Assembly: GCA_021788365.1 (NCBI GenBank)
Contig: JAJYKS010000007.1
Location: 1-33,141, forward strand
Length of the DNA stretch: 33,141 bases
From: a bacterium
Lineage (GTDB): Bacteria > Patescibacteriota > Microgenomatia > UBA1400 > UBA12108
Direction of reading: 5' to 3'
Shown: one piece after another, positions 485 to 33,141 of the stretch
Layout of the letters: each line of letters opens with the position of its first letter
Position numbering within the stretch: the first letter of the stretch is position 1
Made by a program: the position numbers and the translations under genes
Notes under the pieces: model-generated
Told to the model about the DNA's origin: nothing
Seen by the model: the letters and a program-made list of their open reading frames with translations, nothing else
The model's database searches: none

Positions 485-599
485 AAACCTCTCTCCTAAG
501 ATATAACTATCTCCATTCTACCCCACTTGTCTACCGTGCAGACTTGCGATGGCCTGAAAGCCCCGCCCCCACCCCCACCGCAACGATTGCCGACACAAT

Positions 600-758
600 G
601 GCGGCAAGTGCTCCGATCCACCAGTACCGGGCAAACGCCGACTCCGAAATGTTTGTCCTCTGGAAGGCTCGGCTAAAAGACGCAGATACCCAAAAGTGTT
701 ATGCAAAGCCCAAACACAAGCACGGCAACAACCGAAGGGATTATTCGTCGCATTGTAA
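600..758 (+). pseudogene. Possible degraded thermonuclease (SNase-like) C-terminal remnant
   Basis: Frame reads GKRRLRNVCPLEGSAKRRRYPKVLCKAQTQARQQPKGLF, resembling the SNase pattern 'GRLLRYV..EGYA..Y..AQ.EAR..KGLW'. No intact start or N-terminus. Confidence 0.3.
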
Positions 759-6335: not shown

Positions 6336-6342
6336 ATAAGTC

Positions 6343-7500: not shown

Positions 7501-7504
7501 AAAC

Positions 7505-8107
7505 TTAATAGACACTAATGGCGTCCTTGATTTTGTCGTACACACTCTGAGGTATTCCAGCTTTGGCTATGATCTCGTCCGTTGTGCCGTACGGTCGACC
7601 AGCAACAATCGCCGTCGCCCGCGACGGGCCTATCCCCCAAAGAGTATCGAGCTCTGCCTCGCTCGCCGTATTTATATTGACCTTTGCGGTTTTCTGACCT
7701 GCCGATGCACTGATCTGCTGATCCTGCTGGCTAGCAGACTCGCCGACTTGCTGATTTGCCGGAATGTATATCTTCTCCCCGTCTCTAACCGGCGTAGCCA
7801 GATTGAGCGTTGCAGATACCCAGGCATGATCAGCAGATGCAGCAAGTCCCCCAGCGGCAACAAGCACCTCTCCCACCCGCGAACCCTCTGGTAGCGTGTA
7901 CACTCCAGGATTGACTACCGCCCCGGAAACATCGACCACAAGCTGTTTCGCAACACGGCTCTCGGCGTCCGTATCGTGAGAGATCTCCACCACAACAGGC
8001 GGCGGTGCAATCGCCTGCCAAAATCCGTACCCGAAGCAGGAGAGTCCAACGACTCCAACGAGCAAGGCTAAACCATATTCACGCAAAAACTCAAATATTT
8101 TACCCAC
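7505..8107 (-). CDS. comEA: ComEA DNA-binding competence protein (TM + SLBB + HhH)
   Basis: VVDVSGAVVNPGVY.LPEGSRV (SLBB) and KVNINTASEAELDTLWGIGPSRA (HhH). Confidence 0.95.
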   Translation of the reverse strand: MGKIFEFLREYGLALLVGVVGLSCFGYGFWQAIAPPPVVVEISHDTDAESRVAKQLVVDVSGAVVNPGVYTLPEGSRVGEVLVAAGGLAASADHAWVSATLNLATPVRDGEKIYIPANQQVGESASQQDQQISASAGQKTAKVNINTASEAELDTLWGIGPSRATAIVAGRPYGTTDEIIAKAGIPQSVYDKIKDAISVY

Positions 8108-17105: not shown

Positions 17106-17114
17106 AAGGAGTTT

Positions 17115-18125
17115 ATGCTTCGCCTGCCCCACCCAACCCAAGTTGCAATTCGACGTATAAGACATATAGGACTTATATGTCTTATAGGACTTATAACATC
17201 AGTGCTACCGCCGAAGGCGTTAGCAGCTGATGTATCGTTGGTCGTCTCCCCACCCCGCTTCGACGTCGCCGGCAATCCCGGCGAGACGATCCAAAAGATC
17301 ATCAAAGTCACAAACAATAGCGCCACCCAAACATTAAACCTCAAGGCATTTGTCAAAGATTTCATCGTCCAGGACGATATGGGCACCCCCGTCCCGGTGT
17401 CGGTCACCGCCTCCGGCCGCTACTTCGCTTCACCCTGGTTTACCCTCGACCGTAGCTCCCTCACCATCCCCCCCAAAAGTGAAGACCAGCTCATCGTACT
17501 CATCCAGGTACCTAGAGATGCCTTGCCCGGCGGCCACTACGCCGGGGTCTTCTTCCAGCCCGTACCTGAGGGAGGGCTCAAGACCACCGTTTCTTACACG
17601 GCCTCACAGGTAGGTTCCCTTTTTGGCATCACGGTCGCCGGCAACGTCAAATACAACGCCATCATTAAAGACTTCTCCGTCGGCAAAAACTTGTACGAAT
17701 TTGGGCCGGTCGACTTTCAGGCAACTATCGAAAACCAATCGGACACCCACATCAGCCCCAAAGCCGACGTCAAGGTTTACGACATGCTGGGGCGCCAACT
17801 CACCGATCTTTCCCTCGACTCCGTCAACATCTTCCCCTTTACCAGTCGCACGATTGCGGGTAGGTGGGAAACGGTCTGGGGGCTAGGCCGCTATACTGCT
17901 ACCTTGACCGCCGCCTACGGCCCAAATGGCGCCGTTGCCACCCGCACGATCCTATTCTGGATCCTTCCCTACAAACTCATGACCGCGCTCGGCGTAATTC
18001 TCCTGGTCCTCATCGCCGTCTTTATCCTGATCCGCCGTCACATCTTGCATCGCGAAGACAAGCGGGACGATGAGATCGACGAGCTGAAGCGCAAGATTGT
18101 AGAGCTAGAGAATAAGAACCGGTAA
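17115..18125 (+). CDS. DUF916/DUF3324-like protein with C-terminal TM
   Basis: LVVSPPRF..PGETI..IKVTN; 'IQVPRDALPGGHYAGVFF'; 'IENQSDTHISP'; 'GRYTATL'; TM plus charged tail; AAGGAG RBS. Confidence 0.88.
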   Translation: MLRLPHPTQVAIRRIRHIGLICLIGLITSVLPPKALAADVSLVVSPPRFDVAGNPGETIQKIIKVTNNSATQTLNLKAFVKDFIVQDDMGTPVPVSVTASGRYFASPWFTLDRSSLTIPPKSEDQLIVLIQVPRDALPGGHYAGVFFQPVPEGGLKTTVSYTASQVGSLFGITVAGNVKYNAIIKDFSVGKNLYEFGPVDFQATIENQSDTHISPKADVKVYDMLGRQLTDLSLDSVNIFPFTSRTIAGRWETVWGLGRYTATLTAAYGPNGAVATRTILFWILPYKLMTALGVILLVLIAVFILIRRHILHREDKRDDEIDELKRKIVELENKNR

Positions 18126-18140
18126 AGCTATACTGGTAGC

Positions 18141-19418
18141 ATGCCCATCCCTGTCCCCAACCCACCATGTTCCCAGCATATAACTCCTATACGTCTTATA
18201 AGACTTATAAGTCTTATCGGACTTATAGTGGCGGCCATGCCGCCACATGCATTAGCAACTCCACCTCCCGCCACGAGTAGCGCACAGGTCTCCACCACCA
18301 TCCCCACTTTCTTCACGCCAAACGACACAACCGCCCCCACCGCCCCCCTTCTCCTTCGCCCCGCCGACGGCACCTACACCAGCGAAAAGACACTGGAGTT
18401 TGCCTGGCATCAAAGCACCGACATCGACTCCAATAAAATTATATATACATTATATCTGAATAACGTCGCCACCTACCTGGGCATAAGCAACGACGGAAAC
18501 GCCGAAGGCGCAGGCTATACCTCGCGGATCGAAGGCGGAGAAGTTCGCCTCATCCCCAATCCCCCGCTCCCCGACGGCACCTACGACTGGTACGTCACCG
18601 CCGAGGACCTGTCCGGCAACAAAAGCTACTCGGCGTCGTGGCACCTCACAGTTGACACCGTCCCGCCCACAATTCTCGTGACGGATATCGACACCTACCA
18701 TCACCTCGCGCTCGATTCTACTAACCCCGCTTCCGTCCCGCCAGGAACGAGCTTTGATGTAAATGGGCCAAAAGACGTGTACTTTACCGTTGTTACGGAA
18801 CCGTTTGCGACCATCTCACTCCAGTATCGGACCTATCTGTCCTATACGTCGTATCAAACCTATCCGTTTCCCACCGGCTCCGGTGGTCACGTCAACTCCT
18901 ACGCCCACTTTGACCCCGGTACCTACGAGGTGCTCATTTCAGCGGTGGACCGTGCCGGCCAGCCGGCCGCGCTGCCGCCACTGCTGCTTCGCGTCACCGC
19001 AGCAGCGGTGACTATCGGGCCTATCGGTCCTATTGGACGTATCGGCCCTATCAGCTTCCCCGCTCCGCTCACCTCTCTGCCTTCCACCATCTCGTACGTT
19101 GCCACTCGGGTAGGTATGGCAGGATATGTAGCCATTTCGCTAGCAGTATTAGTACTGATACTGCTCATATTCCTCTGGAACAGGCGGGACAACCTTATCT
19201 TGGTGGACGAGCATGGAAACCCCCTTGCCGCGAGTGTTTGGCACTCGCGGCAATATACGTCATATATGATATATAAGTCGTATAAGACGTATACAGGTAG
19301 GCTACGCGTCCCTCACCTAGGTCGCTACTCCACCCTCACGATCCGCACAAGCCGCATCACGCTCGTCCTCTCCCTCTGCCAAAATGCGCGCGTCTACACG
19401 GTCATAGTACCCCAATAA
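18141..19418 (+). CDS. Ig-like (Big) domain membrane-anchored protein
   Basis: 'DTTAPTAP.LL.P', 'LPDGTYDWYVTAEDLSGN', 'TVDTVPP'; TM near the C-terminus; carries four 9-nt repeat arrays. Confidence 0.8.
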   Translation: MPIPVPNPPCSQHITPIRLIRLISLIGLIVAAMPPHALATPPPATSSAQVSTTIPTFFTPNDTTAPTAPLLLRPADGTYTSEKTLEFAWHQSTDIDSNKIIYTLYLNNVATYLGISNDGNAEGAGYTSRIEGGEVRLIPNPPLPDGTYDWYVTAEDLSGNKSYSASWHLTVDTVPPTILVTDIDTYHHLALDSTNPASVPPGTSFDVNGPKDVYFTVVTEPFATISLQYRTYLSYTSYQTYPFPTGSGGHVNSYAHFDPGTYEVLISAVDRAGQPAALPPLLLRVTAAAVTIGPIGPIGRIGPISFPAPLTSLPSTISYVATRVGMAGYVAISLAVLVLILLIFLWNRRDNLILVDEHGNPLAASVWHSRQYTSYMIYKSYKTYTGRLRVPHLGRYSTLTIRTSRITLVLSLCQNARVYTVIVPQ

Positions 19419-19460
19419 GTCCTATTTGACATATTCCTCCAATACGTCATATTTATTACT

Positions 19461-19973
19461 ATGCCATATAAAGAACTGTTATCCTACCAGATGACAACGA
19501 TCATCTACGATCTAACCGATATTTTTGTAAGAAAATATATTGACAAACGCTCCCGTACCAGTGACCAAATGGTACAAGCCGCCAGGTCTAGTAAGCAAAA
19601 CATTGTTGAAGGCTGCAGCGAACGCACATCAAAAAAAAGCGAGCTCAAGCTCCTAGGCGTAGCCCGTGCCTCACTCAAAGAACTCCTGGAAGATTACGAA
19701 GATTACCTCAGGCAGCGCGGGCTCAGACAATGGGAAAAGTCCTCGCCAGAGTCCCTGGTAGTCCGTAATCTCTCATATAGGTCATATAAGACCTATCAGA
19801 CCTATACGTCCTATATGACAACCCCCAACAAAGCCGCCAATTGTCTTATCTGCCTCATAAATCAAGCCGGATATCTGCTCGACAAACAAATTACGAAAGC
19901 GGAACAAGATTTTCTGCAACATGGTGGGTACACAGAAAATTTGTTTCGACAGCGGCTTCAAAACCGAAAATAA
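19461..19973 (+). CDS. Four-helix-bundle protein with suffix domain (23S rRNA IVS-protein/TIGR02436-like family)
   Basis: Y.ELLSYQ..IIYDLT..F, SRT.DQMVQAARS.KQNIVEG, ELKLLGVARASLKELLEDYEDYLRQR, AN..ICLINQA.YLLDKQI...EQDFL..GGYTE.L. Confidence 0.92.
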   Translation: MPYKELLSYQMTTIIYDLTDIFVRKYIDKRSRTSDQMVQAARSSKQNIVEGCSERTSKKSELKLLGVARASLKELLEDYEDYLRQRGLRQWEKSSPESLVVRNLSYRSYKTYQTYTSYMTTPNKAANCLICLINQAGYLLDKQITKAEQDFLQHGGYTENLFRQRLQNRK

Positions 19974-20007
19974 CACATTCCCCCTGCATGTAAACGCGTG
20001 AAACTAT

Positions 20008-20034
20008 TACCGCAATCATTTGCGGTATTATTTC
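20008..20034 (+). terminator. Probable terminator hairpin
   Basis: TACCGCAA-TCAT-TTGCGGTA followed by a T-rich tract. Confidence 0.45.
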
Positions 20035-20047
20035 TGGTCCCAGACTA

Positions 20048-20077
20048 TTGACACGCCTTGTACAACGCTTTTATAGT
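20048..20077 (+). promoter_or_regulatory. Sigma70-type promoter for the giant gene
   Basis: TTGACA, 18-nt spacer, TATAGT. Confidence 0.55.
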
Positions 20078-20138
20078 AGACCTATGGTCCTGAGTTTATC
20101 GAAGGATAACAGTGTATAACGAAATATAACTACAAGAT

Positions 20139-23100
20139 ATGAAACCAAATACTGCCCACCCTACATTCGACACCATTCTCGCCACCTGCAAGCAGTTTCT
20201 TGCAAGCACCCACCTGAGTCTCACCAGCCGCAAGCTGTATCTCGCCGACATCAAGCGGTTTTTGCACTGGCTGCAAGCCAGTAAAACCCTGAGTGAATCG
20301 AAGGGCTCGCCGCTAGATATACTCACCCAACCAAGTAACTACACCTCGTATATGGAGTCCTTGAGGAACAATGGCGCTGACAAGTCTGTGCTACTTCGCG
20401 CCCTCGCCTCGCTCAAGCAGCTCGGCACTGTGCTTTCCGCAACCTACAGCATCGCAAACCCCACCGACGGGTTCACCTTGAAGCAAAGATCCGATCTTTC
20501 CGAAGATCGGATCTTTGCTGAGAACTACATCAAACCATTCACCAACCAGCTCGAAAGCGAGCACCTCTCCCCTTTGACCGTTAGGTCCTATAAATCTGAC
20601 GTCACCCGCTACCTGCATTGGGCAAGCTCCAACACTCCTAGCACTCAGATGGATGCAGTGCTAGGCACAAAAAATCGCGAAAAATACTTGGATCATCTGC
20701 GCCAAATTGATGGAATGTCTTCGGCGACCATAGAGCGAAAAGGTAAGTCCATCGCCCGTTTTGCAACGTGGTATGCCGGTGCCTACCCGCACGCCGTACT
20801 ACCCGATAGTTCTTCCGCCCACCTAGCGAGCGGTATAGGACCTATACGTCCAATACGTCCTATTGGACCTATACGTATTGGCTCCTCTGTTCCAGAGGAA
20901 CCAATAGATTCCGTGAAAAAAAATAATTCCCGCAAACGGTTCTTTCTCCCGATTCCGCGCCTGTTCGGCCCAGGTTCCGAACTTCTGGGAGTTCGGAACC
21001 TTCTTCCCTTTGCCATCCTCCTCCTCTTCACGATTACCCTTGGCGTCTTCTCCTACCGTCAGTTCTCCCGCGATCGGGTTGTCTTGACCGAAGCCTATCC
21101 CAGCACACCGGTTACCCCGAACCGGCAGATCTCCTTCCAGGGCAGGCTCGAGAACGCCGGTGGCACACCCATAACCAGCGCCACCAACTTTGTCTTTAAG
21201 TTGTTCGATGCCGCCTCCGCCGGCACGCAGCTCTATAGTAGTGGCACGTGTTCCGTGACCCCCGACTCCGACGGCGTCTTCAATACTCAGATCGGCAGTA
21301 CCTGTGGCTCGGCGATTACCTCCGATGTCTTTACCCAAAACGCCAACGTCTATCTTGAAGTCACGGTGGGCGCCGAGACCCTCACCCCCCGCCAGCAAAT
21401 CGCCACCGTCGCCTATGCCCTAAACTCCGAGACTCTGCAGGGATTCCCCATCTCCGCAACGGTCTCTGCAGTGCGGAACACCGTCGTCCCCATGAATCAG
21501 TGGGGTGAAATCTTGGTCGGCGAGCAAAATCCGCGCATGACCGGCGTCTCAGGGACGTTTCAAATCTCCGCCCCCGCCCTCTCGCTCGCGACGACCACGG
21601 GCAGTAGTGGCAACATCACGATTGCCCCCGACGGCACCGGCCAGGTCAACGTGAACGGCAACACCACGACCACCAATTTCTTCAACGTGGCCGACGCCCA
21701 GCTCAGTACCGGCACTTTGATTACCGGCACCGTGGGGAACAACACCACCGGCTTCAAACTCCTCGACCTCCTTTCAGGAACCAGCCCCACCAGCAAATTC
21801 TCGGTAGACGCCTCCGGCAACACCACCCTCGCCGGCACGCTTAGCCTCCCCAATAGCAATACCTTAACCGGAGTGACCAATTATATTGAAGCCAGCGGCG
21901 GCCTCGCGGTAGGTAGCGGCACCACCTATAAACTGACGAGTACCGGCGATCTCTACGCTAATAACATCTACACAGGTGGTACGCAAAGGTTGGACTCCGC
22001 CGGAAATTTAACAAACATTGGCACCACCCAGCTCCACGGGGTCACCTACACCTGGCCAAGTGCCGACGCCGGCTCCTCCGGCTACGTCCTGTCTAGTAAC
22101 GCAGGCGGCACCCTCTCGTGGGTGGCCCAGACCGGCGGGGGTGGTAGCACTTATTGGCGGCTCGCCACCGGCGCACTCTCCCCGGTAAACGACACCCTCG
22201 ACCTTTTGCTCGGAGGCAACGCCACCGGCTCCGCCAAAATCGGACTAATCAACGTGAATAGCGGCACTCCCACCGCGACCATTGCCGGCACCACCGCCAA
22301 TGTAGCAACCTACCTGAATGGCAACGGCACGCTAGGGACGACCAACGCGCAAACCTTGACCCTCGGCAGTATTTCGACCGGCAACGTCATCCTCGCTCCC
22401 GGCGGCACGACAGCGTTGACCGCGGCAGGCGCCAATCTGACCGCTGCCGGCACGCTCACCCTGCCAAGCACAAACACCTTGACCGGGGTGACCAACTATC
22501 TGCAGCTTTCCCAGGGCTTGTCCGTCGGCGGCGGCACCACCTACTACATTGCCGGCAACGGTAACGGCAATCTCAACGGCCTCACGCTGGGTGCCGCCCT
22601 CGCTCTACCAAATACCAACAGCCTAACCGGGGTGTCGGGTTATGTACAATTTAACAACGGGATATCCGTGGGGGCGGCAACCGCCTATCACTTCGACAAT
22701 ACCGGCAACCTCGTCGCCCAAGGCGTCTCCGGCACGTCCCTCACCGATTCTGGGCTCACCCCCGGCTCCATCGTCTTTGCCGGCATGGCTGGTCTCCTTT
22801 CCCAAAACAACGGCAATTTTTACTGGGACAACACGAACAAGCACCTGGGCGTGGGCGCCAGCGGGACGAATCTTTTGGGTACCCTTGACCTTCGCTCCAC
22901 GCTCGGCACCCTGCCGGTCGCAACCATTTCCGGAGCGACATCCATGGCCTCCCTCATGGTCGACCAATCTGGTGTCGGCGACCTTCTTACGGCGAGCAAG
23001 TCCGGCGCCACCAAATTCGTGGTAGCCAATAATGGCAATGTGGGGATTGGCACCGCCAACCCCAGCTATCTTCTGGACGTGAACGGCAACGCCCGGATCG

Positions 23101-26100
23101 TGGGCGCCACCTTTACCAACAACGTCTATTTTGCCAACAGCTCGGACACGACCGGCTACTATGTGGACGTGAACGGCAACGCCAAATTTCTGGATTTAAT
23201 CGCCTCCGACACCGGCAACCCCGGATTAACCGTGGGCAACGGCAGCATCGGTTTTGCCAAAATCGGCGGCAGCACCATCTCCGACAACGCCGGCAACCTG
23301 ACCCTCGCCTCCGACACCGGTACGACGGACATTACCGGGAACGCTACGACCACCGGCTATGTGACGGTGGGGAACGGCATCATCAATTCGGGAGTTGCCG
23401 ACGGCACCTCGGCTCTCGGCTTCACCCTCAACACCAACAACACTCTGACCGGCGCCGACGCCAAGCTCCTCTCCATTAAAAACAACGGCACCGAAAAAAT
23501 GTACCTGGATGCCAGCGGCAACCTCTACGTCTCCGGCACGATTACCTCCGGTGCCGGCTTCTCCGTCACCGCGGTCAACAAGAGCGGCGGCACCGTCGCC
23601 AAGAAGGCACTAGTCGTCCTCGACCCCACGAACGCCAACGCCTTCACCACCACGACTACCCCCTACTCCAAGGCCGTCTTTGGTGTAGTGCAGGGGGTAG
23701 AGGTCAACAGCGACACCAACAACAACGGCGCCTGCGACGCGAACGAGACCTGTCTCATCGCCGTTGCTGGCGAGGTCGACGTTACTATTAAAAATACAAC
23801 CACGGTCGCCAAAGGCGATTATCTCTTCACCTCCGACACGGCAGGTAGCGCCTTCTCCTCCGCCAAGCAGTACGACGGCCTGGTCGGCGTCGTCTCCGAT
23901 ACTACGAATGCCGGCTCCGGCTACGTCAAGATGATTTTCAAAGTTCAGCCCCAGGTCACGGCCAGCGCCGCCATAGACAAGACCAGCAAACACAACGAGT
24001 ATTGGCTCTACGCGAACGACTACACCGCTGTCAATGAGGGTACGAATACTAATGCTAACCTCCTGGCTCGGGGGCTTACCTTTGACAATTTCTACGACAA
24101 CACCAAAACGGATAGCGCCAACACCACGGTGAGCGGCCCCGCCCCCGTTGGCGGCGCCGCCGCTCCCTATCGGGCAGGCCTCATGGGTGGCCAAACCATG
24201 AGTGCAGCAACCACCGACAATGCCGGGAATACCTATCTAGGGAGTAGTACGGTCAACAAGGTCTTCTACTACGACCGTACCAAGGACAGTATCCCCCAGG
24301 TCCAGGTAGAGCTAGGGATCGATCCTAACTGGTACAACGGGGTAACCTTGTCGGTGGCAACAACCAGTGCTCAGTTTAGCCAGAACAGTACCACTCCCCA
24401 GAAGAATCCGAACTTAAGTACCTCGTACAACGGCTCCCTGATTAAAGCCACGGGGACATATAGCAGTAACGCCAAGACTATCTATATCACCATCAAGTCC
24501 CCCACCACCTTTGACTGGACGGACTACAACGGCCAGGCTGCGACCGGCGTCACCATGACTCCCGGGACAGCCCAGGCGCTAGGGGCAACCGGTGTCTCCG
24601 CGACCTTCACCTCCGCCTCCTACAATGTCGGTGATGTCTTCAAGATCGCCTCCTGGTTCACCGAACCATCCTCTTCCACCCGTGGGGCAAAGGCCCAGTT
24701 CCCGGAACGCTCCAATATCGTGGCGACCGCCTCCTCCGTGGACGTGATCGACGCCGATACCCAGAAACTCTGGATGAGGTTTAGCACTGGCGGAACTACG
24801 ATAAATAATTCTAATATGATCGGTGCTACCGCCGATCCACTAAATTCGACAACAGCGCTAAATGGAGAAATAATAACCGCTAATACTGGAACTGTTTCTA
24901 ACTCAACAACATTCATTAGATTTTTTAGCGACGAAGCACGTATCGCGAATGCAACCGGTGGCAATGGACATAAATACAACGGTGGTATCTCTCAAAGAAA
25001 TTCTGGACTAGGAATAATTACTAGTATATATGCTAACTTTAATATAGTGGCACCTCAAGCCAACGACGTCGCCGCTGCCGTCATCCCCAACCAACCCACC
25101 GGTCAAGTGACCGTGAGTGGGTGGGGGTATATCCAAGGTGCTGCCGCAACCAACGTAAGTGAAGCCGTCAATCTGCCGTACAAATTTAATAATATTCCAA
25201 AAGTAAACATTAGCTATACCGGCGCCAAACCAACAACAGCCCCAACCTCACTTTCAGATTGTAACGCTGCTTATAATCGTTACACCGTTTGGACTGGACC
25301 AGTAACAACTACAGGTTTCTCTGCATTTATAGGGCTTACAGATGCAGCAGATGGAAACATGAGTTCAAGCTACTATTTCTGTTACACCTGGACCGCAACC
25401 GGCGTCGTCTCCCCCAAACAGTTTGTGGCGGTAGCGACAGGTAGTAGCAGCTCAAACGGCGGTACCACCGTCATCAATGAAACCGATGGCACCAGTATCA
25501 ACATCTCCATCGGCAGCCAAAGCGGCGGCACGGTCTGGCAAGACAAGGTTGCCTTTGCCAACAACACCTTATATCTAGGTGGTGGTGGTACCCCCACCCC
25601 GACCTACTTGGCAGTATATTATGGGGTTCACGGCCTATCAGCCAGCGAAACATCTTGGGCTCAATATCGGAATGGATACTACTTTGTCGGACAACAATCT
25701 AGTGGTTGGTCGGCAACCGGACCTGTAATTTTAGGTGCAAATGGTGCTCGTTTTACCTCCCTTGTCGCGACTCCAAACACCTCAACCATAAATAGCCACA
25801 GCAACACCATCTATGCCGGGACTGCCAGTGGTCTTTCTGTCATCCAAGAAAACCAGGGAGGGGGCAATGTTGCGGACGGTTCCGTGGAATCCTCCGGTTC
25901 TGTTAAATACTACACCAAAGACTACGTCTCCGAAGAAATGGTTGGGGATGTCCGCGGCATGTGGCCCTTGTCCGCCAGTGGTGCCCTTTCCTTGTCCGAC
26001 GTCTCCGTTAAGGGTAATACATTAACAAACACAGGATCCGTTACTGCAGTGAGCGGCGTTCGTGGCATGGGGGCAACGTTTAATGGGTCAAACTACCTAT

Positions 26101-29100
26101 CTATTGCAGATAATTCATCGCTTAACCTCAGTGGCGGATCAACAATGTCAGTCGGGGCCTGGTTTAAAACAACATCGTCAGGTACCGTGATTGCCAAAAC
26201 ACAGGGAGGAGTATCGTATCCAGACTTTTATCTTGTCGTCGGAGCCATATCGTCCGGAAAGATAACATTTACTATGTCTGTCACCGCAGGTACTTCTCAG
26301 GTGGCAGTCACCTCTAACACGACAGTTAATGACGGTAATTGGCACTATGCAATTGGTTCATATGATGGTGCGAACATGAATCTTTACATTGATGGAAAAT
26401 TAGACAATACAGCTGCAAGAACGGGAGCAGTTTATCACAATGCATCGGCATCTTTAGCAATTGGCGCGGTCTTGGGCACACCGAATTCCAGTTTTCTTAC
26501 AGGATCAGTCGACGAGCCATTCGTGACGGCGACAGCCCTCTCCGCCTCTCAGGTTAAACACATGTACGAGGTAGGTGCTCGTGCTCTCCAGTCCCACGCT
26601 ACTACCCTGGGTGGTGGTGGAGCCGACTTGAATCAAGAGTTAGGTGGCTCGGTCAATACGGTGGGAGACGCAAGACCGGACTACAACAACCAGTTTATGT
26701 ATGTCGGTACCAACGATGCGACGAATGGCAGGGTATCTAAGATTAGCTTAAACAGTGATACCAACGTCAAGACCTATGACAAAACCACCAATACCCCGAC
26801 AGGAGGTACCCTTCTGGCCAATGACAACACCAACACTCTCGCCGTCGGCTACAACCTGGAGACCGTGGGGAGCGCCACCAGTGGGGTAAAAACCATAGGG
26901 ATCGATTCCTACGCGACCGCCACCTCCGGCAACTTTATCGGCAAAACAGTCACCACTGCCGAATCTTTCAACCAAGCCTACGTCTGGAGCCAGTACACCC
27001 TGGACAGCTCCGACGCGAGCAACACCGTTGCCGTCTGGGCCAGCAACGACGGCGGCAGCAACTACTACCAATGCAATCTCACCAACACCGATTCCAGCCA
27101 GTCCCCTCCCGAGTACGAATACTTCTGCCAGTTCAACACTCCCGGCACTTCGCTCAAAACCAAGTTCGTTATGGCCCGCGGCTCCACCAAAACGAACACC
27201 TATATTACTCGTTACGGCGTAGCGTGGGTGAGCGGCGACGCCGTCGCGAGCGCCCCCGGCGGCAACGGACTTTACACCAACACCAATACCGCGGTCGCGA
27301 GCGGCAGCTACATCGACGTCGCCCACAACCAGGGGACGAACGATCTTTTGACAAACGCCTGGATCAATTCCCAATCCGTCTGGAAATCCCTGGATGCCAG
27401 CTACCAGCCGGCTATAGCCTGGGCAGGCAAAGATACGGAAAAAGGCGTCTACCACAACGCCGTCAATTCGTACGTACCAACCGCCGAGACTACCGACACC
27501 ACCACCAATCTCGCAAGCGGCCTCCTCTTTGACACGTTCGAAGACCAGACAAAAACCGACTCCGGCAGCACCACCGCCTCCATTACTACTCAGAAGCCGG
27601 ACGACGGCGCCGCCAACTATATGACCCTGCAAAATAGGGTCCAATCCGGCCGCGTCGGCCTCATGGGTGGCCAAACCATGAGTGCAGCAACCACCGACAA
27701 TGCCGGGAATACCTATCTAGGGAGTAGTACGGTCAACAAGGTCTTCTACTACGACCGTACCAAGGACAGTATCCCCCAGGTCCAGGTAGAGCTAGGGATC
27801 GATCCTAACTGGTACAACGGGGTAACCTTGTCGGTGGCAACAACCAGTGCCCAGTTTAGCCAAAACAGTACCACTCCCCAGAAGAACCCGAACTTAAGTA
27901 CCTCGTATAACGGCTCCCTGATTAAAGCCACGGGGACATATAGCAGTAACGCCAAGACTATCTATATCACCATCAAATCCCCCACCACCTTTGACTGGAC
28001 GGACTACAACGGCCAGGCTGCGACCGGTGTCACCATGACTCCCGGGACAGCCCAGGCCCTTGGCACGACCGGTGTCTCCGCTACCTTTACCTCCGCCTCC
28101 TACAACGTGGGCGATGTCTTCCGTATTGCTTCATGGTTTGTCGAGCCGGCTTCCGCGACCCGTGGCAGCAAAGCTCAGTTCCCGGAGAGGAGTAATGTAA
28201 TTACTCAAAATAACTACACTGATATTATTGACGCCGATACGCAAAAATTATGGATGCGTTTTAATGTGGTCGCCTGGAAGACATCGTACGTCGCTCTAAG
28301 CGCCAACATGCTCAACGGTATTCTCTATATCGCCAACAATAATAGTGCCGGTAGCGACGGCAACCTCAGGCGTCTCAATTTTGCAATCGATAACGACAAT
28401 TATCTCTATGAAGGGAGTACTTTCAAAGCCATTGGAGCCCAGACAACTATTGCTGCTAGAAATATTGCCGGTACCAGCAACGTCATTATCGCTCCCATTG
28501 GACTAGTTTCGCGCTACGCTAACGACGTCTCCGCCGCCGTCATCCCCAACCAGCCGACGGGACAGGTGACGGTAAGCGGGTGGGGATATGTGGCCGGAGA
28601 TGGGGTTAGCACAGTTCTGACAGAAGCCGTCAACTTCCCATACAAATTTAATACGACTCCAACTGTCCAAGTCTCTTGGGCTGGACAAGTAGCATCAACT
28701 CCCACTTCCTTATCAAGTTGTGCCACATCTGGCGGAAGCGGAGCAGGGCTAGGATCAACAACTGCAGCTGCAGTTGGCACAAATACATTTAACGTTAGTA
28801 TGGCAAAAAACACAAACGTTTTTGCGAGTGGTGTTTACTTCTGTTACACCTGGACCGCCACCGGCGTCGTCTCCCCCAAACAGTTTGTGGCAGTAGCAGA
28901 AGGAACGAGTATCGCCGGCGGCGCCACAGACGTAATCAATGAAACGGATGGCACGGTTGCTCATATAATGTCTGCAAACGGAGCAGTAAACACCCTTAAC
29001 TATCAATCAAAAGTCGCCATCGCCGGAAATAATCTCTATATGGGAGATGGATACCTCCCCTCTACTGGTATATCATCAGTGGATATCTACCATGGTATTC

Positions 29101-32100
29101 ACGGACTCACCTCAGAGGCAGGAGTTGCCCAATACAGACGCGGATATTATGAAGTAGGGGCTATTGGTGCCTCATTTATTCCAAGCATTTTAGGTACAGC
29201 CACCGGTGCCAACCAGATTACCTCGCTTGCCGCCACCGCCGGAACTTCAACTGTCGACGGCAAATCAAACACGCTCTACATCGGTACCACCTCTGGCCTT
29301 ACGGTATTACAAGAGAATCAAGGATCGGGGAACATCACAGACGGCTCGGAAGAATCCTCCGGTTCCGTCAAATACTACACCAAAGACTACGTCTCCGAAG
29401 AAATGGTCGGCGACATCCGCGGCATGTGGCCGCTCTCCAGTAATGGCGCATTATCTTTAACCGACGCCTCTATAAAAGGAGATACTCTCACCAATAACGG
29501 TAGTGTCACCGCTATTTCCGGCGTGCGTGGTATGGCGGCCAGCTTCAATGGAAGTAATTACTTATCCTGTACCGACGCGGCCTGTGGAGGAACGACCAAA
29601 TTAGACTCCGGCGGCACTACTTGGAGCTATGGTGCTTGGTATAAAACAACAATGACAGGGTCAGGGGGAACGGCTGGAAGAATTATTGGTAAATGGGGTA
29701 ATGGAACTGCTGGAATAGCATCGTATTTATTATCCATGGGAGATTCTGGCACCGGAAAATTGAGAGGCGTTATACAAAACAGCTCTGCAACACAAGGTAT
29801 TGTTGACGACACAACGACAAGTAATGATGGCAGCTGGCACTACGCCGTAGTAACGTATGATGGAGCTAGCCTTAAACTATATCGAGATGGACAACTAGTT
29901 AACCAAACCGCCACTACTGTCACAATCGCTGATGGAACGGCTGGTTTTGCGGTTGGAGCGGCTGACACACCAGGCTATTATTTTACCGGCTCCATCGACG
30001 AGCCCTTCGTGACCGCCACGGCTCTTTCTGCTGGTCAGGTTAAACACATGTACGAGGTAGGTGCTCGTGCCCTCCAGTCTCACGCCACAACCCTGGGTGG
30101 TGGTGGAGCCGATCTCAATCAAGAGTTAGGTGGCTCGGTCAATACGGTAGGAGACGCTCGCCCCGACTACAACAACCAGTTTATGTATGTCGGTACCAAT
30201 GACGCGACGAATGGCAGGGTATCTAAGATTAGCTTAAACAGTGATACCAACGTCAAGACGTATGACAAAACCACCAATACCCCCACGGGAGGGACACTCC
30301 TAGCCAACGACGATACCAACACTCTCGCCGTCGGCTACAACCTAGAGACCGTGGGGAGTGCCACCAGTGGAGTCAAGACTATGGGGGTAGATGACTATGC
30401 AACGGCCACGAGCGGCAGCTACTACAGCAAGACCTACACCCTCCCCCAGAATATTGGCTCGGCTGTGCTCTGGGCATCCCCAATCCTGGATAGTGCAGAC
30501 GCCGGCAACACGCTAACGGTCAAGGCCTCGGTCGACGGTGGTAGCACCTACACTACCTGTACCCTGGCCAGCACCGATTCCGCTCCCACCGTCCCCGAAA
30601 AAGAATATGCCTGCACCTTCCCCGCCTCCGGCTCTTCCCTCAAGATCCGCTTCGACTTTGCCCGCGGTTCTACGAAAACCAACACCTATCTCGTCCAGTA
30701 CGGCATCTCCTGGCTCGGCCAGAGTGGCTTTAAAATCGAGCAAACTGACAACAACACCGTCCGCCTCTACAACTACTCCGGAGAAACCCAAAACCTCCGC
30801 CTCGACGTCGTGACCGGCGGCCTCGGCAGGAACTCCGGCACCATCAGCCTGGCCCCCTCCGTGGCCGACGTCAACGCCAACTCCAACACCAACAGTATCT
30901 GGGTGAATAATACCGGCACCGGCGGCAATCTTCTCAAATTACAGTCAGGGGGAACCGATGTCCTTTCGCTCACACCCACGGGCAATCTGACCCTGACCGG
31001 CGACTTGCATTTGACGGGTAAGCTCTACGATTCAAATGTCACATCGGGCATCAGTCTCGGCGATGCGAGCAACTCCTCCCTGGTCGGCTTTGGCGCCTCC
31101 TCCTTGGTCGGCGCCCTCAACGAACTTAAAAATAGCAACGCCAACATCTCCCACAACGACTATCTCGATTGGGCCAATTACTATACCGCTAAAGCCGAAG
31201 GATCAAACTCCAACGTCAACAGTGCTCTGAACGGCCTCTTCTTCGACACCTTCGCCGATAGTACCAAACTGGACAGCGCCAACTCCACGAGTAGCGGCGC
31301 CATTCAAATCTCGGATCCATCCGCCGCTGTCAAACCTTCGGCGCCCTTCCGTGTCGGTCTCATGGGTGGCCAAACCATGAGTGCGGGGACAACCGACAAT
31401 GCGGGGAATACCTATCTTGGGAGTAGTACAGTCAACAAGGTCTTCTACTACGACCGTACCAAAGATAGTATCCCCCAGGTCCAGGTGGAGCTAGGGATCG
31501 ATCCTAACTGGTACAACGGAGTAACCTTGTCGGTGGCAACAACCAGTGCCCAGTTTAGCCAGAACAGTACCACTCCCCAGAAGAATCCGAACCTAAGTAC
31601 CACCTACAACGGCTCCCTGATCAAAGCCACGGGGACATATAGCAGTAACGCCAAGACTATCTATATCACCATCAAATCCCCCACCACCTTTGACTGGACC
31701 GACTACAACGGCCAGGCTGCTACCGGTGTCACCATGACTCCCGGGACAGCCCAGGCACTCGGGACAACCGGTGTCTCCGCAACCTTTACCTCCGCCTCCT
31801 ACAACGTGGGCGATGTCTTCCGTATTGCTTCATGGTTTGTCGAGCCCGCTTCCGCCACTCGCGGTAGCAAAGCTCAATTCCCGGAGAGGAGTAATATTAT
31901 TGGCACTTTAGCCAATAATACCAGTATTATTGATGCCGATACTCAAAAATTGTGGATGTCATTTACTGGAGGAAATAACAATACCGCGGCCACAATGACC
32001 ATGCTGGGGTATGAATCTAATTCGATAAATGCTCTCAACGGAGTTATTTATTCCGGAACTCCAAATAGCAACAATGTAGGTTTAACAATGATCCGCTTCA

Positions 32101-33141
32101 ATGTAGACTCTGCTTCTCATGCTGACGGTGGAGGGAATAATTATATGACCTGGAAAGGATCGGGGATTGCTGGCCGTAATGTTGCCTCAGGATATTCAAC
32201 TACTAATTCCTCCATATCTATTGTTAGTTCAGTTGTTAACGACGTCTCCGCCGCCGTCATCCCCAACCAACCCACCCAAACTGTGACGGTGAGTGGGTGG
32301 GGGTATATCCAAGGGAGCGGCCTTGGAACGATGGCTGAAACAGTTAGATTACCATATAAATTCAACGACATTCCAAATATAGTAACCAACATAGGGGGCG
32401 CGACAAACAGTGGCGCGCCTACAAATCTTTCAAGTTGTACAACTGGCGCATTCGGTTACGGTACGATTGCTGCTTCCGCCTCTTCTGTAGGAAATTCTTC
32501 ATTTACGGTAAACATGACCATGCCTAGTGGTACTTTTAGCTCCTCATATTATTATTGCTACACCTGGACCGCAACCGGCACCGTCTCTCCTAAGCAGTTT
32601 GTGGCCGTGGCAACCCAAGTTGGCAATACGGTCATTAATGAAACTAACCAATCATCTATCAATGTTTATAATAACGGATCTGGTTATCCAAATAAAAAGA
32701 TCTTCCTTACTTCAAAAGGCGAACTCTATTACACGGAAGATCTCACTCTTGCCAGAGCAGAAGACCAGCTTTTGGTAAAACGGAACGTTGCAGGACTCAC
32801 TACAAATCAAACTGGCGCCAATGGGTTTGATTATTATTACAATCATCAGTCCACCTCTATCCCCTCATTGGGAAGTCTGGCCTATGTCCATAGCTTGTAT
32901 GTAACCGAAAATACATCAACCTATATAAACGGTGGAAACACTGTCTATTTTGGTGATGATGGGGGTCTAAAACTAATTCAAGAAAATAGTAACTACGGAA
33001 ATGCGAGCGACGCGGGTGGTGGAACACCTGGTGGTTCCGTCAAATACTACACCAAAGACTACATTTCCGAGGAAATGGTCGGGGATGTCCGCTTAATGAC
33101 ACCATTTGCCGGAACTTCTGCATTATCTACCAACACCACTC
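20139..33141 (+). CDS. Giant (>4,330 aa, 3'-truncated) membrane-anchored protein: two integrase SAM-like core-binding domains, TM, fibre-like beta repeats, and ~1,160-1,230-aa modules with H-lectin/gp53-like and LamG domains
   Basis: Hand translation from ATG 20139 (MKPNTAHPTFDTIL...). The frame is consistent at every repeat checked and at the window end (..KYYTKDYISEEMVGDVR..). It is absent from the ORF track, which fits an ORF with no stop inside the window. Confidence 0.92.
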   Translation, partial: MKPNTAHPTFDTILATCKQFLASTHLSLTSRKLYLADIKRFLHWLQASKTLSESKGSPLDILTQPSNYTSYMESLRNNGADKSVLLRALASLKQLGTVLSATYSIANPTDGFTLKQRSDLSEDRIFAENYIKPFTNQLESEHLSPLTVRSYKSDVTRYLHWASSNTPSTQMDAVLGTKNREKYLDHLRQIDGMSSATIERKGKSIARFATWYAGAYPHAVLPDSSSAHLASGIGPIRPIRPIGPIRIGSSVPEEPIDSVKKNNSRKRFFLPIPRLFGPGSELLGVRNLLPFAILLLFTITLGVFSYRQFSRDRVVLTEAYPSTPVTPNRQISFQGRLENAGGTPITSATNFVFKLFDAASAGTQLYSSGTCSVTPDSDGVFNTQIGSTCGSAITSDVFTQNANVYLEVTVGAETLTPRQQIATVAYALNSETLQGFPISATVSAVRNTVVPMNQWGEILVGEQNPRMTGVSGTFQISAPALSLATTTGSSGNITIAPDGTGQVNVNGNTTTTNFFNVADAQLSTGTLITGTVGNNTTGFKLLDLLSGTSPTSKFSVDASGNTTLAGTLSLPNSNTLTGVTNYIEASGGLAVGSGTTYKLTSTGDLYANNIYTGGTQRLDSAGNLTNIGTTQLHGVTYTWPSADAGSSGYVLSSNAGGTLSWVAQTGGGGSTYWRLATGALSPVNDTLDLLLGGNATGSAKIGLINVNSGTPTATIAGTTANVATYLNGNGTLGTTNAQTLTLGSISTGNVILAPGGTTALTAAGANLTAAGTLTLPSTNTLTGVTNYLQLSQGLSVGGGTTYYIAGNGNGNLNGLTLGAALALPNTNSLTGVSGYVQFNNGISVGAATAYHFDNTGNLVAQGVSGTSLTDSGLTPGSIVFAGMAGLLSQNNGNFYWDNTNKHLGVGASGTNLLGTLDLRSTLGTLPVATISGATSMASLMVDQSGVGDLLTASKSGATKFVVANNGNVGIGTANPSYLLDVNGNARIVGATFTNNVYFANSSDTTGYYVDVNGNAKFLDLIASDTGNPGLTVGNGSIGFAKIGGSTISDNAGNLTLASDTGTTDITGNATTTGYVTVGNGIINSGVADGTSALGFTLNTNNTLTGADAKLLSIKNNGTEKMYLDASGNLYVSGTITSGAGFSVTAVNKSGGTVAKKALVVLDPTNANAFTTTTTPYSKAVFGVVQGVEVNSDTNNNGACDANETCLIAVAGEVDVTIKNTTTVAKGDYLFTSDTAGSAFSSAKQYDGLVGVVSDTTNAGSGYVKMIFKVQPQVTASAAIDKTSKHNEYWLYANDYTAVNEGTNTNANLLARGLTFDNFYDNTKTDSANTTVSGPAPVGGAAAPYRAGLMGGQTMSAATTDNAGNTYLGSSTVNKVFYYDRTKDSIPQVQVELGIDPNWYNGVTLSVATTSAQFSQNSTTPQKNPNLSTSYNGSLIKATGTYSSNAKTIYITIKSPTTFDWTDYNGQAATGVTMTPGTAQALGATGVSATFTSASYNVGDVFKIASWFTEPSSSTRGAKAQFPERSNIVATASSVDVIDADTQKLWMRFSTGGTTINNSNMIGATADPLNSTTALNGEIITANTGTVSNSTTFIRFFSDEARIANATGGNGHKYNGGISQRNSGLGIITSIYANFNIVAPQANDVAAAVIPNQPTGQVTVSGWGYIQGAAATNVSEAVNLPYKFNNIPKVNISYTGAKPTTAPTSLSDCNAAYNRYTVWTGPVTTTGFSAFIGLTDAADGNMSSSYYFCYTWTATGVVSPKQFVAVATGSSSSNGGTTVINETDGTSINISIGSQSGGTVWQDKVAFANNTLYLGGGGTPTPTYLAVYYGVHGLSASETSWAQYRNGYYFVGQQSSGWSATGPVILGANGARFTSLVATPNTSTINSHSNTIYAGTASGLSVIQENQGGGNVADGSVESSGSVKYYTKDYVSEEMVGDVRGMWPLSASGALSLSDVSVKGNTLTNTGSVTAVSGVRGMGATFNGSNYLSIADNSSLNLSGGSTMSVGAWFKTTSSGTVIAKTQGGVSYPDFYLVVGAISSGKITFTMSVTAGTSQVAVTSNTTVNDGNWHYAIGSYDGANMNLYIDGKLDNTAARTGAVYHNASASLAIGAVLGTPNSSFLTGSVDEPFVTATALSASQVKHMYEVGARALQSHATTLGGGGADLNQELGGSVNTVGDARPDYNNQFMYVGTNDATNGRVSKISLNSDTNVKTYDKTTNTPTGGTLLANDNTNTLAVGYNLETVGSATSGVKTIGIDSYATATSGNFIGKTVTTAESFNQAYVWSQYTLDSSDASNTVAVWASNDGGSNYYQCNLTNTDSSQSPPEYEYFCQFNTPGTSLKTKFVMARGSTKTNTYITRYGVAWVSGDAVASAPGGNGLYTNTNTAVASGSYIDVAHNQGTNDLLTNAWINSQSVWKSLDASYQPAIAWAGKDTEKGVYHNAVNSYVPTAETTDTTTNLASGLLFDTFEDQTKTDSGSTTASITTQKPDDGAANYMTLQNRVQSGRVGLMGGQTMSAATTDNAGNTYLGSSTVNKVFYYDRTKDSIPQVQVELGIDPNWYNGVTLSVATTSAQFSQNSTTPQKNPNLSTSYNGSLIKATGTYSSNAKTIYITIKSPTTFDWTDYNGQAATGVTMTPGTAQALGTTGVSATFTSASYNVGDVFRIASWFVEPASATRGSKAQFPERSNVITQNNYTDIIDADTQKLWMRFNVVAWKTSYVALSANMLNGILYIANNNSAGSDGNLRRLNFAIDNDNYLYEGSTFKAIGAQTTIAARNIAGTSNVIIAPIGLVSRYANDVSAAVIPNQPTGQVTVSGWGYVAGDGVSTVLTEAVNFPYKFNTTPTVQVSWAGQVASTPTSLSSCATSGGSGAGLGSTTAAAVGTNTFNVSMAKNTNVFASGVYFCYTWTATGVVSPKQFVAVAEGTSIAGGATDVINETDGTVAHIMSANGAVNTLNYQSKVAIAGNNLYMGDGYLPSTGISSVDIYHGIHGLTSEAGVAQYRRGYYEVGAIGASFIPSILGTATGANQITSLAATAGTSTVDGKSNTLYIGTTSGLTVLQENQGSGNITDGSEESSGSVKYYTKDYVSEEMVGDIRGMWPLSSNGALSLTDASIKGDTLTNNGSVTAISGVRGMAASFNGSNYLSCTDAACGGTTKLDSGGTTWSYGAWYKTTMTGSGGTAGRIIGKWGNGTAGIASYLLSMGDSGTGKLRGVIQNSSATQGIVDDTTTSNDGSWHYAVVTYDGASLKLYRDGQLVNQTATTVTIADGTAGFAVGAADTPGYYFTGSIDEPFVTATALSAGQVKHMYEVGARALQSHATTLGGGGADLNQELGGSVNTVGDARPDYNNQFMYVGTNDATNGRVSKISLNSDTNVKTYDKTTNTPTGGTLLANDDTNTLAVGYNLETVGSATSGVKTMGVDDYATATSGSYYSKTYTLPQNIGSAVLWASPILDSADAGNTLTVKASVDGGSTYTTCTLASTDSAPTVPEKEYACTFPASGSSLKIRFDFARGSTKTNTYLVQYGISWLGQSGFKIEQTDNNTVRLYNYSGETQNLRLDVVTGGLGRNSGTISLAPSVADVNANSNTNSIWVNNTGTGGNLLKLQSGGTDVLSLTPTGNLTLTGDLHLTGKLYDSNVTSGISLGDASNSSLVGFGASSLVGALNELKNSNANISHNDYLDWANYYTAKAEGSNSNVNSALNGLFFDTFADSTKLDSANSTSSGAIQISDPSAAVKPSAPFRVGLMGGQTMSAGTTDNAGNTYLGSSTVNKVFYYDRTKDSIPQVQVELGIDPNWYNGVTLSVATTSAQFSQNSTTPQKNPNLSTTYNGSLIKATGTYSSNAKTIYITIKSPTTFDWTDYNGQAATGVTMTPGTAQALGTTGVSATFTSASYNVGDVFRIASWFVEPASATRGSKAQFPERSNIIGTLANNTSIIDADTQKLWMSFTGGNNNTAATMTMLGYESNSINALNGVIYSGTPNSNNVGLTMIRFNVDSASHADGGGNNYMTWKGSGIAGRNVASGYSTTNSSISIVSSVVNDVSAAVIPNQPTQTVTVSGWGYIQGSGLGTMAETVRLPYKFNDIPNIVTNIGGATNSGAPTNLSSCTTGAFGYGTIAASASSVGNSSFTVNMTMPSGTFSSSYYYCYTWTATGTVSPKQFVAVATQVGNTVINETNQSSINVYNNGSGYPNKKIFLTSKGELYYTEDLTLARAEDQLLVKRNVAGLTTNQTGANGFDYYYNHQSTSIPSLGSLAYVHSLYVTENTSTYINGGNTVYFGDDGGLKLIQENSNYGNASDAGGGTPGGSVKYYTKDYISEEMVGDVRLMTPFAGTSALSTNTT
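24060..27509 (+). repeat. Giant-gene module copy 1
   Basis: Block starting CTCATGGGTGGCCAAACCATGAGTGC at 24180 recurs at 27660 (+3480) and 31359 (+3699). Boundaries approximate. Confidence 0.9.
27510..31224 (+). repeat. Giant-gene module copy 2
   Basis: About 440 bp nearly identical to copy 1 from 27660, and about 400 bp from ~30000 nearly identical to ~26515 onward. Confidence 0.9.
31225..33141 (+). repeat. Giant-gene module copy 3 (truncated by window)
   Basis: Same conserved blocks at 31359, ~32238, ~32556 and ~33033. Confidence 0.9.

Follow-up and report, generated by a model that had tools for sequence, protein, structure and literature searches.

The 33,141-nt contig analysed here (the window; contig C7 of the source genome G000, a patescibacterial assembly of 1.085 Mb in 26 contigs, 94.8% complete) carries a gene of the PF05635 four-helix-bundle family with a C-terminal "suffix" domain (TIGR04258), accompanied by its own 9-nt tandem arrays. 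The same architecture recurs in hosts of many phyla: arrays flank the gene on both sides and split it at one fixed place, and the repeat unit follows the protein clade. At the present locus, comparison with relatives indicates that the gene was inserted between two surface-protein genes, where the arrays are specific to this lineage and turn over between strains. Our preferred reading, which we hold tentatively, is that of a repeat-bracketed mobile cassette whose quasi-palindromic arrays have spread locally by DNA copying, filtered by reading frame.

PF05635 proteins were first seen in the intervening sequences (IVSs) of 23S ribosomal RNA (rRNA), are very widespread and are kin of Avd, a factor of diversity-generating retroelements (DGRs); their genes are frequent guests in CRISPR and restriction operons. 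Outside DGRs, we know of no function for these proteins. No published link of PF05635 or TIGR04258 to tandem arrays was found in a search that left supplements and curators' model notes outside its range. Neither "TIGR04258" nor "four helix bundle suffix" occurred in any paper searched; the curators' own TIGR04258 text may mention repeats.

The gene, its arrays and the genes around it are located in the window as follows; z-values compare hairpin folding with dinucleotide shuffles.

17115..18125, forward strand: surface-locus gene with array 1, 336 aa, no Pfam match
17148..17195, forward strand: array 1, in the 336-aa open reading frame (ORF), encoding IRRIRHIGLICLIGLI, signal-peptide n/h region; hairpin z -2.7
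18141..19418, forward strand: surface gene with Big_13 Ig-like domain and arrays 2-5, 425 aa
18179..18227, forward strand: array 2, in the 425-aa ORF, encoding ITPIRLIRLISLIGLI, signal peptide; hairpin z -3.3
18825..18862, forward strand: array 3, in the 425-aa ORF (YRTYLSYTSYQTY), a variable loop in orthologues
19012..19052, forward strand: array 4, in the 425-aa ORF (IGPIGPIGRIGPI), a variable proline-rich linker before the membrane helix
19253..19293, forward strand: array 5, in the 425-aa ORF (YTSYMIYKSYKTY); hairpin z -3.8
19412..19460, forward strand: 5' flanking array of the cassette, degenerate, shared in part with the putative promoter and with the region around the stop of the preceding gene; matches at 19414 and 19423
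19419..20138, forward strand: interval holding the inserted cassette, 720 nt; 159-390 nt and gene-free in 10 relatives
19461..19973, forward strand: four-helix-bundle suffix gene, 170 aa, TIGR02436/PF05635 at the N-terminus and TIGR04258 at the C-terminus
19776..19820, forward strand: linker array within the suffix gene, encoding SYRSYKTYQTYTSY between helix 3 and helix 4
20139..33140, forward strand: giant surface ORF with array 8, more than 4334 aa, open at the window end
20833..20879, forward strand: array 8, in the giant ORF (IGPIRPIRPIGPIRI), before its membrane helix
6335..6351, strand not assigned: two-unit remnant, exactly at the overlap of two ComEC-like ORFs

A preliminary description of this DNA had reported eight arrays, and sequence inspection, Tandem Repeats Finder (TRF) and a pattern scan found all of them where it had placed them. 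Their unit, which we call type A, is TATNNGWCN, i.e., TATA followed by RGWCY; because both parts are palindromes, an array reads almost alike on both strands, and the near strand symmetry noted in that description is thus borne out. Two-unit type-A matches with at most one mismatch number 49 in the window, whereas 100 dinucleotide shuffles gave 0.36 on average and never more than 2; a chance origin of the arrays is excluded. The count for 17147-20877 (3.7 kb) is 47 of the 49, the remaining two being listed at 6335-6351 and 20576-20592. In the whole source genome, three-unit matches (at most two mismatches) number 51, with none for the pattern read backwards as a control: 38 in C7:17147-20877, 12 in C16:2627-3050 and 1 in C23. 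Outside the span around the gene, only one weak copy had been noticed; this copy exists (6335-6351), but the repeats are not confined to that span, with three more type-A arrays on contig C16. The C16 ORF that carries them shows homology to the giant gene, at the C-terminal end as judged from synteny in two relatives (G021 and G020), and probably belongs to the same giant gene as 20139..33140 of the window, so that practically all type-A arrays of the genome would lie in one surface-protein gene cluster.

Within ORFs the arrays are read as I-G/R-P/L or as Y-x-S/T, the frames quoted in the preliminary description, and these are the only stop-free frames because most units contain TAA or TAG in the third. 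Signal peptides and membrane-proximal linkers use the hydrophobic I-x-L/P frame, and loops and the linker of the suffix gene itself use the Y-x-S/T frame. The same description rightly recognised that two arrays encode the n/h-regions of N-terminal signal-peptide-like segments and that the constraint acts at the nucleotide level. TRF gave an additional 18-nt period for array 2. Of the eight arrays, six gave imperfect hairpins, with z-values from -1.6 to -3.8 (at or below -2.4 in four of them), while the degenerate upstream array at 19412-19460 gave no hairpin signal (z -0.5).

The product of the suffix gene scored 63.2 bits with TIGR04258, the four helix bundle suffix domain (cut-off 40; residues 124-170), and 39.3 bits with TIGR02436 (cut-off 24). 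The PF05635 match is borderline, with 33.6 and 33.9 bits in two scans against a cut-off of 33.8, and the TIGR02436/PF05635 match covers only residues 8-76. The AlphaFold2 (AF2) model, with a predicted local distance difference test score (pLDDT) of 87.6, places helices at residues 7-26, 32-51, 58-85 and 122-153 and a further one at the terminus. In this model, the peptide encoded by the array falls within the lower-pLDDT residues 101-120, between helix 3 and helix 4, and the linker array occupies the matching position in homologues. The best Foldseek matches in the PDB were 2gsc (Xcc0516, TM 0.85, target-normalised) and 2rld (BT_0352), both PF05635 proteins, at E-values of only 0.03-0.5; model and matches together point to a predicted four-helix-bundle fold. 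The family named in the preliminary description (PF05635/IVS protein with an Avd-like fold) is correct on the evidence of TIGR02436, PF05635 and Foldseek. The protein is basic, with an isoelectric point (pI) of 9.4, equal to the family median (96% of 85 proteins above 8). Pfam, TIGR/NF-model and Foldseek scans found no nuclease, recombinase, polymerase or transposase domain in the protein or the cassette. Rfam found no rRNA in 16500-21500, where the cassette sits between two protein-coding genes; no known RNA family was found there either, the scan having returned only sub-threshold noise from microRNA models.

The genome holds four PF05635-type genes, two of them canonical 123-aa frames and two of the suffix type, and each suffix-type gene has a distinct internal 9-nt array. 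In the second suffix gene the linker array lies at C20:97231-97271 and has the unit TAAGTTACY. The unit of this array recurs in five perfect copies (TAAGTTACC x5) at C12:15787-15831 (locus L119), at the junction of two glycosyltransferase-like ORFs.

Comparison with relatives bears directly on the history of the locus. The order in related genomes is 336-aa gene, 425-aa gene, giant gene, and the 336-aa gene has matches in 27 of the 41 genomes searched, G000 among them. In all 10 relatives in which the giant gene is visible it follows the 425-aa gene directly, across a gap of 159-390 nt as compared with 720 nt in G000. These 10 orthologous loci gave no TIGR04258 match, and type-A arrays were present at 0/11 orthologous loci; the comparison of loci lacking the gene, which the preliminary description had proposed as a check, therefore shows gene and arrays missing together. 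On the evidence of this synteny, the suffix gene at 19461-19973 is an insertion between two surface-protein genes; the intergenic DNA of the orthologous loci has diverged too far for a target-site duplication to be recognised. Genome-wide, three-unit type-A matches in 59 of 60 relatives number 0-3, near the control level, the exception being G034 with 10. Weak matches in G002 and G005 were rejected as arrays, since they are a conserved SYKSD coding motif. The array-coded segments align with variable segments of similar length in the orthologues, and the arrays are for that reason replacements with no net insertion. Replaced in this way were the cores of signal peptides, a loop of an Ig domain, proline-rich linkers and, in the giant protein, the linker before the membrane helix.

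Species-representative genomes were searched with a profile of six proteins. At least 593 loci from many phyla were retrieved, whose proteins share 48-59% identity with that of the window. Genome statistics were computed on the best 80 loci; the metagenome replicate consisted of 78 of 80 loci, which include many near-copies and are not independent. Around the 80 genome loci, period-9 arrays reach 13.2 per 10 kb at -200..0, 8.4 within the gene and 19.8 at +520..720, compared with 0.5-1.3 elsewhere within 10 kb, and control periods of 8, 10 and 12 give 0-1.3. The peak inside the gene lies at about nt +310, which corresponds to the linker between helix 3 and helix 4. The metagenome loci repeat the pattern (22.9 and 39.8 vs 0.45-1.5); the scan for close relatives of the cassette in metagenomes found none above 59% identity. 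At most loci the arrays lie within about 200 nt of the gene and a wide halo is absent; one comparable to that of the window was seen only in G039. The G039 halo (L124, G039:C62, 3031-6930 and 10929-11663) surrounds two suffix genes 5 kb apart; at least four nonamer families lie inside its neighbouring ORFs, some of them non-palindromic (GTACAAGAG).

Unit types are built alike, from a 4-nt palindrome and a GWC-centred part, and 63 of the 80 loci could be typed, none of which mixes types.

Type A: TATA+RGWCY, 42 loci
Type B: GTCNGACNN, 12 loci
Type C: GATC+NGWCN, 8 loci
Type D: TTAA+NGWCN, 1 locus
Type E: AATT+NGSCN (AATTNGSCN)

A protein tree was built from 79 of the 80 loci (L071 was removed by the length filter) and six sequences from G000 and relatives, with the linker columns omitted. 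Type B forms a single clade (12/12 rows, one label change), all eight type-C rows fall with one untyped row into one clade with an SH-like approximate likelihood ratio test (SH-aLRT) support of 99 (two changes by parsimony), and type A forms the backbone. Unit-type labels change 21 times on the tree, a value matched in 0/200 shuffles, compared with 39 times when shuffled; repeat type does co-vary with protein clade, and the gene-plus-cognate-repeat system that had been proposed is supported. Given that type follows clade while phyla are scrambled, gene and arrays appear to be inherited and transferred together, and the mixing of host phyla within clades at 48-59% identity points to horizontal transfer. 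The link between type and clade is no proof of co-adaptation, because kinship alone yields such clustering. Concerted evolution within loci is modest, both for type A (1.64 vs 2.08; 121/5000 resamples as low) and for type C (0.83 vs 1.37; 37/5000 resamples). In the complete genome of an isolate of Prevotella nigrescens, a CCTAGGNNN array lies about 40 nt downstream of the suffix gene, which shows that the arrays are no assembly artefact of metagenome-assembled genomes. The RefSeq product name of the Prevotella homologue is likewise "four helix bundle suffix" protein.

As a rule, the cassette occupies a place between genes of one operon. Neighbours were tallied for 75/77 downstream and 77/79 upstream ORFs, the two longest having been dropped from each set. 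Cas4 (9/75), HsdR_N (5/75) and, at several loci, restriction-modification methylases lie downstream, and Cas7 (9/77) and type I specificity subunits (5/77) upstream. The Cas neighbours agree with the occurrence of 23S_rRNA_IVP genes among cas genes described in an earlier report (PMC3936711). Carriage by phages or plasmids found no support, with tblastn returning no phage record and one plasmid-collection record, a 568-kb Prevotella replicon. Broken suffix genes occur at L144 (G034:C2), L003 (G034:C5:116130) and L145 (G028:C20). One is an N-terminal part cut right after the linker array, another comprises the suffix alone, and the third is a remnant with an internal deletion and stops.

Strain-level variation was followed in four mine-drainage runs of one study; the first (X1) may be the source of the window and is hence not independent, and X2-X4 are three other samples. 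In these three sister samples the locus is identical to the window save for a few single-base differences and two patches. One of them, 18144-18258, contains array 2 and is exchanged for 103 other letters; the second, 20811-20911, contains array 8 and about 35 nt beyond it and shows 36 listed substitutions of all base classes. With these substitutions applied, the alternative allele at 20811-20911 is still an in-phase type-A array, with different units. The contigs of X2-X4 break at several arrays, array 1 included. The cassette itself is unchanged between these co-occurring strains, and no array copy-number differences are listed between the four runs. A minor contig of X2 (depth about 3, as compared with 17 for the main one) agrees with the window as far as 19412, where the 5' array starts; its continuation occurs nowhere in G000, and it may represent an allele in which the cassette differs or is missing.

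Arrays also accompany canonical PF05635 genes. Among 21 such genes in five related genomes, arrays of period 7-9 with at least 2.5 copies within 150 nt were found on both sides of 11, on one side of six and on neither side of four, where about 0.03 tandem arrays per flank are expected. These arrays are of 7-8 nt, and the flank pairs (loci L125-L143), judged by eye, are inverted in seven cases and direct in three. One canonical gene of G000, at C2:159280, is bracketed by an inverted heptamer-based repeat (159264-159293 and 159640-159672).

Arrays are found away from suffix genes as well. Type-E arrays occur in 13 of 61 genomes, with about zero control matches. They are abundant in four relatives without any TIGR04258 match (18 type-E matches in G021, 24 in G022, 24 in G028 and 9 in G007, vs 17 in G051, which has the gene), which suggests that arrays persist, and perhaps spread, without it. 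With the family profile, G028 yields no more than a decayed remnant, and G021, G022 and G007 yield canonical PF05635 genes only. In G028, type-E arrays occupy intergenic spacers between housekeeping genes. In G021, one is in frame in the inter-domain linker of a gene resembling that of DNA polymerase III delta' (holB-like), another lies just upstream of gyrB, and others encode parts of the signal peptides of two surface-locus genes, at the same spot as arrays 1 and 2 of the window. G000 itself has type-E arrays at C16:2290-2337 and C16:13906-13950 and no type-E suffix gene; the former shares its giant ORF with the three type-A arrays. In total, G000 contains 181 short arrays of period 6-9; heptamer arrays with strong periodicity (AATTTTC and GATTCAA types) number about 39, and PF05635 genes are far fewer. 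Examples are:

L122 (G021:C3) 6843-6901 and 7216-7267: type-E arrays in the holB-like linker and upstream of gyrB
C14:48511-48549, C16:20439-20481 and C2:149375-149412: heptamer arrays of G000

Three further observations concern the genes of the window. Before its membrane helix, the giant protein begins (20139-20800) with a pair of phage-integrase N-terminal SAM-like repeats, one scored by Pfam (residues 132-206) and the second recognised by eye. The giant ORF contains, at 20482-20519, a near-perfect hairpin whose stem measures about 15 bp and which surfaced only as sub-threshold noise of a microRNA model. At the type-A remnant, a ComEC-like gene on the minus strand is divided between two ORFs, one with the Competence domain (6343-7545) and one with the MBL domain (5421-6359), which overlap there; this could be a frameshift or a real split. 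The remnant as an old cassette site inside ComEC is unsupported, because the G039 gene next to an MBL ORF is preceded by a LamG-like surface gene and not by a ComEC Competence domain.

In the explanation that we tentatively favour, the suffix gene would travel as cargo in a mobile cassette of the PF05635 (23S-rRNA-IVS protein/Avd-like) family, one that is compact and moves horizontally. The cassette carries cognate strand-symmetric 9-nt arrays at three fixed places (5' flank, loop between helix 3 and helix 4, 3' flank) and has inserted between two surface-protein genes in the lineage of G000. Array sequence would then have been copied into unconstrained segments of the adjoining surface genes, i.e., signal-peptide cores, loops and linkers. 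We infer that this copying is a DNA-level, protein-independent process, such as gene conversion or template switching between arrays, and selection may have kept only copies in the two stop-free frames, with length preserved in multiples of three. Arrays can live inside ORFs because the 9-nt period equals three codons. It may further be that the basic window protein (pI 9.4) contacts the arrays at all, and that the flanking arrays have a role at the RNA level, e.g., as an IVS-like stem. The G034 gene that breaks exactly at its linker array and the decayed remnant in G028 would agree with recombination-prone arrays, as the two-unit blocks of 14-16 nt that array 8 and the C16 type-A arrays have in common would agree with copying between arrays.

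Several observations weigh against this explanation. The shared blocks are short and no conversion donor or tract was identified, and the patch at 20811-20911, running past its array, could result from ordinary allelic recombination in a hypervariable surface linker. The C16 arrays are at least 12 kb off in the same gene, so that distance alone does not define the spread. Across the family, distal cognate arrays were found in 6/60 cases compared with 12/600 controls; the halo described here is an exception, and something special to the G000 genome is needed to account for it. Type-B arrays of one locus are no more alike than those of different loci (3.0 vs 2.4). Furthermore, the retention of non-coding flank arrays across phyla suggests a function that local copying does not cover; the persistence of one type across phyla argues that the flank arrays matter to the cassette.

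The preliminary description had envisaged an active protein. The basic four-helix bundle would recognise its cognate nonamers and promote array copying or insertion nearby, the arrays being non-autonomous satellites of the gene, as in REPtrons. These consist of repetitive extragenic palindromic (REP) elements, hairpins of about 35 nt, together with a RAYT transposase (Y1, IS200/IS605-like). Such an active role is possible and would suit a basic family (median pI 9.4) whose genes are flanked and split by their own repeat type and whose unit type tracks the protein clade. It would also suit the finding that the two suffix genes of G000 have a unit each and that both units recur (10 further type-A arrays; TAAGTTACC x5 on C12). 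The solo arrays of G028, with their decayed gene remnant, would then resemble miniature inverted-repeat transposable elements (MITEs) that outlast a master copy. We nevertheless regard an active protein as doubtful, given that it has no nuclease, recombinase or polymerase domain, that type-E arrays are as frequent in the four genomes without a TIGR04258 gene (G021, G022, G028 and G007) as in G051 with one, and that simple co-inheritance, with kin sharing labels, would produce the same link between type and clade. That the suffix protein reads its own 9-nt unit and, with a host polymerase or repair enzyme, writes cognate arrays nearby seems to us unlikely. The order of events could also be reversed: the arrays would be an independent REP-like class of small genomes, and the cassette would land in them or be captured by them through homologous recombination, so that an array-rich locus attracted the suffix gene of the window. 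Type-E arrays without a suffix gene nearby in G028 and G021, an array of a different type at the same signal-peptide spot of the 336-aa orthologue in G021, and the 181 short arrays of G000 would fit this order. We consider it quite improbable, since no pre-existing type-A landing pad is visible (0/11 orthologous loci; at most three matches in relatives save G034), arrays in hosts of many phyla are essentially restricted to the cassette, and the linker array has a fixed place inside an ORF.

A role of the arrays as operators, bound by the protein to regulate the surface-protein locus, was also part of the preliminary description and finds no support here. One array does lie just upstream of the suffix gene and two at the 5' ends of neighbouring ORFs, but most are deep in coding sequence, within variable segments and not at operator-like positions. 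The cassette also occurs in unrelated contexts (cas7-cas4, hsdS-hsdR, housekeeping genes) and the orthologous loci function without it, which makes this a very improbable explanation. Hardly credible at all is the idea that selection at the protein level favoured tripeptide repeats (I-G-P or Y-x-T) and that each surface protein acquired its own independently: although linkers and signal peptides are places where low-complexity peptides are common, a single nucleotide unit serves two reading frames and is present in the non-coding 19412-19460 as well, it is strand-symmetric, TAT is retained even in GC-rich hosts, and the orthologues have no such repeats.

The PF05635 family is here tied to a nucleic-acid feature that can be checked, its own short tandem array that travels with each gene. 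The 9-mers of the suffix subfamily and the 7-8-mers of canonical members offer an obvious substrate for experiments on binding, processing and mobility, and the array-gene-array signature is usable by annotation pipelines and repeat finders. Under our preferred reading of a mobile cassette with locally copied arrays, a reduced genome also displays a route from selfish repeat DNA to coding sequence, with palindromic nonamers serving as signal-peptide cores and linkers. If the protein did write its arrays, this would be a "repeat-writing" system, frame-neutral and free of reverse transcriptase, that remodels surface proteins at their signal peptides and linkers. Its simpler relatives would then be the 7-8-nt arrays of canonical PF05635 genes, and the IVS/Avd-like family would gain a general job, the management of short tandem repeats.

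Among known systems, several invite comparison. Like Avd, the window protein is a basic protein of a four-helix-bundle family, encoded beside surface genes with local hypervariable patches. DGR-type mutagenic homing was rejected: G000, 94.8% complete, gave no match to the reverse transcriptase domain RVT_1, the Avd model NF033474 did not match the window protein at E <= 0.01 (the canonical C2 paralogue reached 26.4 bits against a cut-off of 80), and the substitutions between strains are of all base types and not adenine-specific, with no pair of template and variable repeats. Cyanobacterial short tandemly repeated repetitive (STRR) sequences are related short tandem repeats. TAACTGA heptamers form intergenic direct repeats in Beggiatoaceae, cyanobacteria and Bacteroidetes (PMC4679880), and like them the present arrays have tandem units of 7-9 nt, are dispersed between genes and are shared horizontally; in contrast, they bracket one gene family and enter coding sequence. 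That report, in its accessible part, draws no link to PF05635, as the words 23S, S23, helix bundle and intervening are absent from it. With the simple sequence repeats of contingency loci the arrays share short tandem units in surface-protein genes and variability between strains, but their units are degenerate, their period is frame-neutral and they vary by replacement rather than copy number. As for insertion sequences and MITEs, the cassette has no transposase domain, and its arrays could act as ends.

Two systems come closest. Ralph and McClelland reportedly described, in 1993, intervening sequences of 23S rRNA that encode a PF05635 ORF. In a more recent report, rRNA insertions with 23S_rRNA_IVP are described from the candidate phyla radiation (10.1101/2024.02.27.582315). 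The cassette shares with such elements the protein family and a small ORF in a transcribed host unit, bracketed by sequences that may be able to pair. The flanks of an IVS element pair into a stem that RNase III processes. It differs in lying outside rRNA genes, in its short tandem-repeat flanks, extra suffix domain and linker array, and in having repeats in neighbouring protein genes. The REP/RAYT pair is similar in that a single gene is flanked by its own short palindromic repeats, whose type follows the gene clade, in its dispersed solo repeats, and in the existence of genomes with repeats and without the gene. In contrast to RAYTs, the window protein is a predicted four-helix bundle and not a Y1 transposase, as only four-helix-bundle models match it, and its repeats are tandem 9-mers, with one array inside the gene and others in frame within ORFs. 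The closest parallel to the system is a REP/RAYT pair in the way it works, and an ORF-bearing rRNA intervening sequence in its construction.

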